Below the pieces are notes generated by a model, which made no database searches, had not been told where the DNA came from, and was given only the letters and a program-made list of their open reading frames with translations. From Rhizaria sp. SCN 62-66 (Eukaryota), in assembly GCA_001724265.1 (NCBI GenBank), contig MEDY01000096.1:62001-116889 (forward strand): 54,889 bases of DNA, in the 5' to 3' direction. The translations under genes were made by a program, and so were the position numbers. Of this stretch, positions 33,455-44,713 are shown piece by piece; the first letter of the stretch is position 1, and each line of letters begins with the position of its first letter.

Positions 33455-36400
33455 TTAATGCTTCGAGGCGTTGTCGCCGACACTGCTGCTGGTTCCCGAT
33501 GACGCGTGCGTGGAGCTGCCCAGCGGCGACGCCACGTTGAGCGGTGCAGGCCGCACGGCGGTCGCGGGCCCCGCAGTCACAGTCGCAGCCGCGGCCGCGG
33601 CCGCGGCAGACGGCGACGCGGGCGCAGAGGCCTCGGAGCCCGTCTCTGACCGGCTCGCAGCAGCGGGGCTCACGGCCACGGGCGGCAGCTGTGAGAGATT
33701 GAAGCTGGGGAAGCCACCGCTGCTGCTGCCGAGCGCGCTGTTGCTCGCGCTCGCAGGCAGTGAGCCAGATCCGCCATTTGCAGCCGCCGCCGAGTTAGCG
33801 TTGGCGCTGGCGAGGTTGGTGTTGCTGTTGCTGTTGGGCGCCGCAGAGGAGAACGACGACCCTGTGGAGGCAGTGCCCGAGGCGGCCGCGTTCGCGGACA
33901 CGGTGGCCATCGCGATCAGAGCGGGCGCGGGACCGGCGTCGTCCCCGGCGCCCTGTGACGACTGCGGCGGCGAGAAGAGCGACTTGAAATTCTCAGCGCG
34001 GCGCTGCCACTTAGTGAGCTCGGTGATGAGCTGCGGCATGTCAAGCGTGCGTGCGGGAACGGAGCCGACGCCGGGGGCGAGTCCCGCAGCGGTGGCCACG
34101 GTCGCGGCCGGCAACAGCGCCTCCGCGCCAGCCTCGTCGAGGCAAGAGTCGCGCAGGAACACGGCGTTGATAGCGTCCCAGTTGGCGCGGTTCTCGGCCA
34201 TCATGCTGCAGCACAGACGCGTGCCGGGCAGCAGCTGGCGCAGCGAGACGTAGAGCGGCGCGACGATGAAGTCGACAAAGTTCATGTTGAGCTGCGCCTG
34301 GTTGGTCTCGCTGCGGATGCCGTTCTGCGATACGGGAAGCTTGTGGCGCAGCTCCAGGTCGCCCTGCGAGAAGAACTCCTCGCATACAGTGTCGGCCCAA
34401 GGCCGCGCCTGCTGCCACGTCTTCGATGCGTTGGAGATGTCGGCCGCGTGCAGGATCACGTTGAGCACCACGGCCTTCTCCGTTGCAGACAGCGCGCCCT
34501 GTACGAAATGGTACAGCGGCAGCTCGCGCGCGACCTGAGGCGGCCCACCCGAGATGCTGCCAGAGATCCCGCCGGCGGCGGCGGCCGCGGCGGCCGAGAA
34601 GGGCGAGGTAATGCCCGTGATGCTGCCGCGCATCGTCAGCGGCGGCCGCGGCGGCAGCGAGCCCATGCCAGAGGAGCGCGGCAGTACCATGCTGCGGCGG
34701 TGGCTCAGCGTCGGCGACGCCAACGGGGACATCGACACACGGTCACGGTCGCGGTCCGCGCTGCCGGAGCCGACGCTAGTGTTGGTCGCACTGTCGTCCG
34801 CGGCCGCGGTGGCGTTGGCGTTGGCGGCCGAGGAAGAGAACGGGAACGGGTCGGCGGGGCCGCGGCGCGCAGGGGACATCGGCACCAGAGCCGCGGCCGA
34901 GTCTTGGCCACCGCCGCTGTTGCTGCTACCCGCGGGGCCAGGGCCCGTGGAGCCTGGCAGCAAGCCCCAGAAGACGGAGAAGCCTTGGTTGCGACGGGCC
35001 TTGGCGCGCGCCGTCTTGAGCTTCTCGTTGATGGCGTTGAGCTTCTCCACGAGCGAAAAGTGCGAAGTCATGTCCGTGGACAGGATCGCAGACGTGACCG
35101 TGGAGCGGAAGTCCTTGTACTCGGCCGATGTGAGGTTCACCAGCACGTTCGACTCGGGCTTGAGCAGCAGCTTGAACAGCACGTGGCAGTGATGGTGCTC
35201 CAGCACGGACTGGTCGTTGTACAGCAGCGCCAGCTTGGTGCGTGCGTTGACCTGATACTGGTTATTGGTGCCCGGGTGACGCACGTCGTGGCCGAACGCC
35301 GACATGAGCAGCGCGAACCGCTCCAGCGGGGTCAGGAACATGGCGGCGCCGAACTGCGTGAGGAACGTGAACACCGTCTGCGTGACGTCGACGGCGTGCG
35401 CGAAGTTGTGGTACGGGTTCGCGGCGTAGTTCTCCATCACATCCACCAGGAATGTCGCGAAGTTGAGCGTCGGCACCTTGTACGCGCGCAGGATGTCGAA
35501 GGAGATGAAGATGCGCACGATGGCCTCGAGCCGGTCGTCGTCCGTCGCCGCGGCGAGCACGTTCCAACCCCAGTCATCGAGTCCGTTGGCAATCGCGGGA
35601 CTGTAGCCCAGCGTCTCGGGCGTCTCGCAAACCGGCTCCGCGGCCGCAGCGGCGGCCGCGGCGGCGGCCAGCGATGCCTGCGCGGCGTTGAAAGGGAACG
35701 ACACAGACGCGCGCGCGGAGAGCGTGGGCGCGCCAGAGCTGGCGGCGCTGGACGTAGTGTGCGCGCCGATGATGGGCGACACAGAGCGCATGCGCACGTC
35801 GGGAGACATCGACACAACCGAGTTGGGCGTGCCGGGCACCTCAGCACCCGCGCCCGCGGCGCCTGAGGCGGCTGCCGTGGCCGTGGGCACCGGGGCCGCG
35901 TGCTGGCCTGCGTGGGTCGAGCTGATGCTCGTCGTGCGGCGGATCGGCGTGAGCGGCGTGACGGGCTGCGAGCCCGACGCGGAGCCGACAGAGCCCGCGT
36001 CGCCAGCGCTGCACGTCACCACGCCAGCGGCGGTAGCGGAAGAGCCAGGAGCGCCGGGCTGCGTCACGTGCTGGATGCCGAGCGCGCGTTGCGCGTTGAG
36101 GTCGTCGATGAGCACGACGAGACGGTCAATGCGGGCCACGCGGGCCAAACGCTCAGTCTCGGCCGACGCAGCCAGCAGAGCGGCCTCGTCCTCGTCGTCG
36201 TTGGCCAGCGCGCCGCGCGGGGACAGCAGCTGCGAGCGCGACGGCGACGCCAGCACGCCCGTCTCGGACGCGGCGACCGTCGACGCCGCAGCGGCCGCCT
36301 TGGCAGCTTTGTTGGCCTGGGCAGCGCCAGCGCTGGGGGACGTAAAGCCCGAAGCGGAGACCTTGGGCGCCGCAGAGCCCACGGCGGGGGCACCCGAGGC

Positions 36401-44713: not shown

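Follow-up and report, generated by a model that had tools for sequence, protein, structure and literature searches.

A predicted single-chain cyclase and phosphodiesterase: an ADCY10-type cyclase pair joined to STAND NTPase, PH and class I phosphodiesterase domains in a rhizarian contig and other protists

We analyzed a 54,889-nucleotide stretch of contig MEDY01000096.1 (positions 62,001 to 116,889 of the forward strand) from the Rhizaria sp. SCN 62-66 assembly GCA_001724265.1, hereafter called the window, and observed in it a very long open reading frame (ORF) whose product of 3752 amino acids (aa) combines, from the N- to the C-terminus, an ADCY10-type C1-C2 cyclase pair, a STAND P-loop NTPase, two consecutive PH domains and a class I phosphodiesterase (PDE). 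The gene is real, its architecture is conserved and the family to which it belongs is uncharacterized. On balance we favor the view that its product is a lipid-recruited, STAND-switched bifunctional enzyme that both makes and removes cyclic AMP (cAMP), and we infer its substrates, its lipid binding, the STAND switch and any pulse behavior from the domains described below. The architecture is not categorically new, since there is precedent both for a cyclase-STAND core of the soluble adenylyl cyclase (sAC) type and for the concept of fusing a cyclase to a PDE. A sequence-only reading of the window had taken the combination to be undescribed. This stands with respect to the literature, in which a full-text search found no paper describing or testing a cyclase-STAND-PH-PDE architecture; it does not stand with respect to the public sequence collections, which already contain such proteins, among them one from Plasmodiophora brassicae (P0004), although these remain unstudied.

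The structural claims of that reading are otherwise borne out. It had proposed a single intronless ORF at 33455-44713, and we find there one frame that opens with ATG and continues for 11.3 kb without an internal stop. The third-position GC content (GC3) of this frame is 0.88, and the predicted N-terminus (MESFASYLPAS...) agrees with the starts of the homologs P0006 and P0008. Four sequencing runs contain part of the gene, and in a polyA RNA run (X2) contig pieces lying within 34213-44249 match, with no mismatch, stretches of its PDE, linker, PH, STAND and cyclase portions. The domain order given by the same reading is recovered by Pfam, by AlphaFold2 models and by Foldseek: its ADCY10-type C1/C2 cyclase corresponds to two Guanylate_cyc matches with ADCY10 as the top Protein Data Bank (PDB) match; its metal-binding Asp pair, substrate Lys and NxxxR motif to Asp43, Asp95, Lys326, Asn403 and Arg407, all invariant; its Walker A motif at about 41231-41254 to GEMGVGKS at exactly nucleotides 41231-41254; its two PH-like domains to regions that are sub-threshold in Pfam but show two PH folds by model and structural search; and its class I PDE with metal-binding His/Asp motifs to a PDEase_I match with invariant ligands. 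All statements of invariance made here refer to one alignment of six proteins, namely the ORF product and five full-length relatives, and the Pfam cut-offs are 21.9 bits for Guanylate_cyc, 32.6 for AAA_16, 25.1 for PH and 24.8 for PDEase_I. Long linkers rich in Ala, Ser and Gly separate the domains of this protein.

Among the 21 PDB sequences that matched the cyclase region at E <= 0.001, the top four are all human ADCY10 (E 1.2e-35 to 3.7e-35), with alignments that span both cyclase domains (residues 31-429). In these alignments Asp43/Asp95 coincide with the metal-binding Asp pair, Lys326 with the substrate-binding Lys, Ser396 with Thr405 and Asn403/Arg407 with the transition-state pair; the ADCY10 counterparts of the four C2 residues are Lys334, Thr405, Asn412 and Arg416, with these roles. 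Asp43, Lys91, Asp95, Lys326, Asn403 and Arg407 are identical in all six aligned proteins, and position 396 is Ser, with Thr in one homolog. A Lys and Ser/Thr pair in C2 sets the substrate of such cyclases, with ADCY10 showing the pattern for ATP. Assuming this role for the two residues, the presence of Lys326 and Ser/Thr396 as in ADCY10 supports ATP as the cyclase substrate. With C1 and C2 in one chain, the full set of catalytic residues and a C-terminal STAND P-loop, the protein has the features of a soluble class III adenylyl cyclase, apart from the bicarbonate site. In ADCY10 this site is formed by Lys95 and Arg176; both the ADCY10 alignment and the six-protein alignment show that its Lys is kept as Lys91 and that its Arg has been replaced by Phe176, which is Phe in all six proteins. 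A canonical bicarbonate switch is therefore unlikely.

Following the cyclase pair, the AAA_16 profile scores 13.8 bits in the ORF product, below its cut-off, and passes in the homologs P0007 (40.1 bits) and P0011 (35.7 bits). The AlphaFold2 model of residues 925-1800 contains a core (about 1144-1794) at a predicted local distance difference test (pLDDT) value of about 90, interrupted by disordered inserts, and a Foldseek search with this model returned 17 PDB matches at E <= 0.001, including the wheat NLR resistosome, CED-4 and ORC/Cdc6 chains. The features that mark a STAND NTPase are all present: the Walker A motif (residues 1154-1161), a Walker B of the hhhhD form (...TID1451-S), a sensor-like Arg (R1481-P1482, following a hydrophobic strand), the GxP motif (G1569-N-P1571) and a winged helix. 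Within these, G1154, G1157, G1159, K1160, D1457, R1481, P1482, G1569 and P1571 are invariant in the six proteins. A HMMER search with residues 1131-2330 against 1.84 billion cluster representatives retrieved 438 proteins at E <= 0.001, 29 of them at E <= 1e-10; of 157 proteins retrieved with the STAND region, 88 show the sAC layout, in which STAND comes after a C1-C2 pair and nothing else is detectable. In STAND proteins the NTPase is normally followed by repeats that sense a ligand, and Pfam detects no TPR or other repeat after STAND in the ORF product. As to the region that precedes the NTPase, the homologs P0004-P0007 display between cyclase and STAND a strand-helix-strand pattern that is ubiquitin-like (beta-grasp) in look. 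Such a domain is not supported in the ORF product, as residues 925-1142 model at a pLDDT of about 30 and have no Pfam match; window positions 41614-41941 (residues 925-1033) are modeled as disordered, likewise at about 30.

In place of the repeats the ORF product has a tandem PH unit. The Pfam PH match (residues 2064-2166, E 0.008, 17 bits) lies under the cut-off in this protein, and the profile passes in all six homologs scanned (P0004, P0005 in two stretches, P0007, P0008, P0011 and P0208). The AlphaFold2 model of residues 1790-2200 (mean pLDDT 83.3, predicted template modeling score 0.67) consists of two seven-strand sandwiches, each with a long helix as cap, and with this model Foldseek returned 108 PDB matches at E <= 0.001, the first being centaurin alpha-1 and FARP, both tandem PH proteins, with Btk, GRP1, Akt1 and other PH domains further down. 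In PH2, strand 1 has a Lys and strand 2 the sequence WKPR, and phosphoinositide binding, if the unit has this capacity, would probably lie mainly with PH2.

The PDE at the C-terminus is recognized by PDEase_I with E 8.8e-73 and 245 bits. Its best PDB match is PDE1B (E 3.2e-50, over fragment stretches 5-193 and 370-452), other close solved enzymes are PDE4B/D and PDE9A, and altogether 151 distinct PDB sequences match at E <= 1e-20. The HD-type metal ligands His3102, His3106, His3142, Asp3143, His3146, Asp3214 and Asp3425 are invariant in the six proteins, and judged by its sequence the domain is very probably catalytic. A long insert divides it, which the protein P0267 retains, with 64% identity across the whole of the 441-residue query (100%); the insert is thus inherited and not an assembly quirk. 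P0267 itself, a fragment of 1551 aa, belongs to a close relative of the window organism and is 86% identical in the PDE core. Upstream of the PDE we noted a conserved short motif of the pattern D-I-D-D-x-x-K-x-W-L-A-x-x-Y, which a regular expression found in 8 of the 13 family proteins examined. It is separated from the 'YHN' of the PDE by 90-145 residues in the three most compact forms and by 498 residues in the ORF product. The WLAxxY part is reminiscent of the gating helix of upstream conserved region 2 (UCR2) in PDE4, but a reading of the motif as a UCR2-like helix finds no backing in Pfam, which gives no match in this region at E <= 10.

We then examined the phyletic spread of the architecture. 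Among proteins of 2063-6566 aa, the PDE region was matched by 7 of 2041 scored candidates, five of which (P0004 and P0005-P0008) carry PF00211, PF00233 and PF00169; the other two are P0003, with a truncated cyclase followed by STAND, PH and PDE, and P0002, an unrelated multi-PDE protein. P0004 is a protein of 2586 aa from the annotated genome of Plasmodiophora brassicae, filed as 'Phosphodiesterase'. The full domain order is seen in at least eight proteins of other assemblies (P0004-P0008, P0011, P0015 and P0208), and P0009, P0014, P0036 and P0267 are fragments compatible with it. Beyond P. brassicae, about twelve proteins from metagenomes or transcriptomes show the order. The ESM Atlas gave no usable match for the C-terminal 2046 residues. 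Among the members, P0006 additionally carries a GNAT acetyltransferase domain, and P0007 a C2 domain (residues 1430-1524, after PH).

A search with the cyclase among proteins shorter than 2063 aa gave 2557 matches at E <= 1e-40 out of 8000 scored candidates. By precomputed Pfam assignments, the 120 listed cyclase relatives are largely proteins of 1200-1900 aa with PF00211, often PF13191 and PF00169, and sometimes FYVE; their hosts include Phytophthora, Pythium, Saprolegnia, Aphanomyces, Paramecium, Amorphochlora, Triparma and Plasmodiophora, and PF00233 occurs in only 2 of the 120. Judged by these domain assignments, the cyclase-STAND-PH-PDE form is a minority form of a very large protist cyclase-STAND-PH family found in oomycetes, ciliates, chlorarachniophytes and ochrophytes. 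In a first cyclase tree of 89 rows, all 8 PDE-bearing rows fall in one clade of 18 rows (support of 100 in the Shimodaira-Hasegawa-like approximate likelihood ratio test, SH-aLRT), apart from the other 71. In a cyclase tree of 60 rows the eukaryotic proteins and the window protein form one clade of 55 rows (SH-aLRT 100), which stands apart from bacterial-type C1-C2-STAND proteins; within it the PDE-bearing rows are scattered, requiring 6 changes, at least 3 of them forced by well-supported branches. Across both trees the PDE label needs 4-6 changes, 2-3 of them so forced. The PDE tree places 12 of the 13 fused domains in a single group of 20 with weak support (SH-aLRT 90) and the fused domain of P0007 among stand-alone PDEs. 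Since many rows of the trees are contig-end fragments, a single fusion with later losses cannot be told from repeated fusion. A further compact protein, P0325 (800 aa, from a EukProt transcriptome), combines PAS, one cyclase domain (241-404) and a PDE (538-771), and therefore the cyclase-then-PDE order arose in at least one other architecture.

In light of this domain complement, we propose that the N-terminal C1-C2 pair would make cAMP from ATP and that the C-terminal PDE would hydrolyze a cyclic nucleotide, in the simplest case the cAMP that the neighboring pair has produced. The two PH domains, which occupy the usual place of the STAND sensor repeats, would bind phosphoinositides, mainly through PH2, and thereby recruit the protein to a patch of membrane; there the STAND module would set cyclase output via its nucleotide state and self-association, and the tethered PDE would keep the cAMP signal short and local. 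The occurrence of PH and often FYVE domains in the PDE-less relatives fits a membrane targeting of the family. In complex prediction, the contact between the cyclase (residues 1-460) and the PDE (residues 3085-3500) scored 0.01 against a mark of 0.34, which speaks neither for nor against a direct contact.

Several observations weigh against this proposal. The activity, lipid binding and oligomerization of the enzyme are predictions from sequence and models, and the polyA RNA evidence consists of assembled contigs, none of which spans the gene and which may reflect DNA carry-over. In the ORF product PH1 is without the usual basic motif at strands 1-2, a position at which homologs have WKKRW. 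The Walker B pair of the STAND module is Asp1451-Ser1452 (window 40358-40363), with Ser as its second member, and the corresponding pairs in the homologs are DD, DN (in P0005), DD, DE and ED. The second Walker B acid is needed for hydrolysis, and because it is Ser here and Asn in P0005, the NTPase may bind nucleotide but hardly hydrolyze it; the varied pairs hint that the module acts as a binding switch and not as a working ATPase. In the PDE, Asn3476 aligns with the Gln of the SQIGF motif of PDE1B, which is known as the invariant purine clamp of class I PDEs. Eleven family PDE domains in which the motif was found have Ser (8), Thr (1), Ala (1) or Asn (1) at this position and Gln in none, as against Gln in 16 other PDEs from the same search; Ser is also present in a group of stand-alone PDEs about 417 aa long. 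Since the clamp Gln is replaced family-wide, the preference of the PDE for cAMP or cyclic GMP (cGMP) cannot be read from its sequence. As to regulation, the part of PMC12802110 available to us reports that on human full-length sAC the tested nucleotides acted no differently than on the other three sAC preparations, and because they had no distinct effect on the full-length enzyme, a nucleoside triphosphate (NTP) gate is unproven even in the best-studied relative. Moreover, the sAC-topology enzyme of Dictyostelium is, by the available text of PMC8684759, a guanylyl cyclase. The sequence-only reading had inferred a membrane-targeted, NTP-gated device making local cAMP pulses, and such a device is conceivable; the replacement of the Walker B acid, the clamp Gln and the bicarbonate Arg complicates this picture.

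The most durable alternative is a cross-talk enzyme, in which cyclase and PDE act on different nucleotides, with cAMP made and cGMP destroyed or the converse, so that one messenger is swapped for the other. The absence of Gln from the purine-reading position in all 11 family domains, next to its presence in the 16 ordinary PDEs, and the cGMP production of the Dictyostelium enzyme both speak for it; yet Lys326 and Ser/Thr396 are as in the ATP-using ADCY10, nothing positively indicates cGMP, and the best solved relatives of the PDE include the dual-specificity PDE1B and the cAMP-specific PDE4. We accordingly regard an exchange of messengers as unlikely. Less probable again, though not negligible, is a pseudo-enzyme or sensor whose PDE or STAND P-loop binds nucleotide without turnover and only regulates the cyclase. 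The lost second Walker B acid, the lost Gln clamp and the large insert that splits the PDE would suit such a role, but the metal ligands and the general-acid His of the PDE are invariant in the six proteins; the insert sits in a loop of variable length among homologs and is kept in the close relative; and the Ser shared by the stand-alone PDEs makes the altered clamp compatible with free-standing PDE genes.

That the protein is an artefact, with mis-assembly, run-through of neighboring genes or a hidden intron feigning a single chain, we consider highly improbable: the window apparently derives from a mixed community, since wastewater and activated-sludge sequencing runs contain its sequence, and the long low-complexity, GC-rich linkers ease false joints, of which many short-sided ones are listed, but the same N-to-C order recurs in at least eight proteins of other assemblies, including the annotated Plasmodiophora genome, the frame has no stop over its whole length, and P0267 from the relative is collinear through PH2, the linker and the PDE. 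The listed contig joints have 20-27 letters on their shorter side and are located in repeats, and for these reasons are not read as splicing or introns; uncovered bins, namely the intergenic 45109-46042 (X1-X3) and several ORF bins, were not used as evidence. Given the E-values of the domains and the recurrence of the complete order in assemblies independent of one another, chance is excluded.

Returning to the favored bifunctional enzyme, we compared it with systems in which its parts are known. One of the closest is full-length ADCY10 (sACfl), which by the available portion of PMC12802110 likewise has C1 and C2 in one chain followed by a predicted STAND with a P-loop. ADCY10 is also the best solved relative (E 1.2e-35) and has the same catalytic residues; it differs in having Arg176 where the ORF product and its five relatives have Phe, and the ORF product differs in having two PH domains and a PDE after STAND, with no repeat found. 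The protist cyclase-AAA_16-PH(-FYVE) proteins share the cyclase-STAND-PH order, and their cyclases are 38-57% identical to that of the window over nearly the whole length among the non-identical matches listed; unlike the ORF product they are 1200-1900 aa long and mostly without PDE. Such proteins are filed under names like 'Adenylate cyclase type 10 [Phytophthora boehmeriae]' and 'PH domain-containing protein [Phytophthora infestans]', occur as well in Paramecium, Saprolegnia, Amorphochlora and Plasmodiophora, and returned no functional study in a full-text literature search.

The plant protein CAPE (COMBINED AC with PDE) resembles the ORF product in uniting a class III cyclase and a class I PDE in one polypeptide. 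It occurs in Marchantia and other streptophytes with motile sperm, and according to PMC5159850 and PMC11032487 both activities have been shown for the Marchantia protein MpCAPE. Its arrangement, however, is the reverse: the PDE is N-terminal and a single cyclase C-terminal in the excerpts of PMC5159850 and PMC8115329, as against a leading C1-C2 pair in the ORF product, and those excerpts name no STAND or PH for CAPE. The opposite order and lack of STAND that the sequence-only reading had ascribed to CAPE agree with the same two sources, as far as they were available. Proteins called 'CAPE-like' are named in Saprolegnia, Achlya and Thraustotheca (Saprolegniales) by PMC8115329, whose main text gives no particulars of them, and these may or may not belong to the family of the ORF product; the Saprolegnia diclina match in our own searches (P0250) has no PDE.

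Dictyostelium sGC (SgcA) is described in the accessible text of PMC8684759 as having sAC topology, a C-terminal AAA-ATPase domain needed for function and enrichment at the cortex, all of which recall the ORF product; the same description sets it apart, as it makes cGMP, has no PDE and is localized via an N-terminal segment rather than a PH domain. In bacteria, GGDEF-EAL proteins place a synthase and a hydrolase of cyclic di-GMP on one chain under a shared sensor. They are alike in logic only, with folds, messenger and kingdom unrelated to those of the ORF product.

The usual explanation of local cAMP is that scaffolds keep cyclases and PDEs, as separate proteins, close to each other. In the ORF product, a cyclase and a PDE occur in one chain with switch and lipid-binding modules, an arrangement kept across distant protists including a crop parasite, and it would offer a minimal natural system for asking whether microdomains or pulses arise when synthesis and breakdown are tethered. 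The same arrangement could reveal the role of the enigmatic STAND domain in soluble adenylyl cyclases, and it draws attention to a large cyclase family of oomycetes, ciliates and Rhizaria that has yet to be studied. More speculatively, and with considerable doubt, the protein might act as a STAND 'signalosome' gated by phosphoinositides, its PH domains standing in for the repeat sensor: lipid would release the STAND module, and self-association would switch the assembly between cyclase-on and PDE-on states to yield a self-terminating cAMP pulse at one membrane patch, in a system independent of plant CAPE and spread among protists of the stramenopile-alveolate-Rhizaria (SAR) assemblage. If true, this would amount to a one-gene cAMP microdomain.

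Table 1. Coordinates of the cyclase-PDE gene and its parts in the window
Feature	Window position	Strand	Product residues	Remarks
Whole ORF	33455..44713	minus		3752 codons + stop, ATG start, 0 internal stops
Cyclase C1	44051..44617	minus	33-221	Pfam Guanylate_cyc 38.3 bits; metal Asp43 and Asp95, Lys91
Cyclase C2	43355..43879	minus	279-453	Pfam Guanylate_cyc 36.9 bits; Lys326, Ser396, Asn403, Arg407
STAND P-loop NTPase	39332..41284	minus	~1144-1794	Ends in winged-helix part; disordered insert ~1217-1314
PH-like domain 1	38642..39289	minus	~1809-2024	Helical hairpin between strands 3 and 4; AlphaFold2 model
PH domain 2	38135..38563	minus	~2051-2193	Seven strands + C-terminal helix; basic motif K...WKPR
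Conserved short motif	36878..36949	minus	~2589-2612	...DIDDSAKKWLAASYS...; upstream of PDE
Class I PDE catalytic domain	34241..35584	minus	~3044-3491	Pfam PDEase_I, two stretches
Ala/Ser/Gly-rich insert in PDE	34490-35011	minus	~3235-3408	~175 residues

From the neighboring long frames of the window, whose products are protein kinases, a SPRY protein, a RING finger protein and an SLC26-type permease, we conclude that the gene lies in a eukaryotic nuclear genome and that introns are few or absent in these genes. The GC content is 0.62-0.73 in coding parts of the window, as against 0.52-0.55 in the flanks of the cyclase-PDE gene. On one side of this gene, the frames at 23446-32409 on the minus strand comprise a product of 2448 aa with only a partial kinase match and a protein kinase of 522 aa; on the other, a divergent frame at 46063-54435 on the plus strand specifies a protein of 2790 aa with a SPRY domain at its N-terminus. 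Over most of the length of these very long flanking frames (23446-32409 and 46063-54435) Pfam matches are missing.

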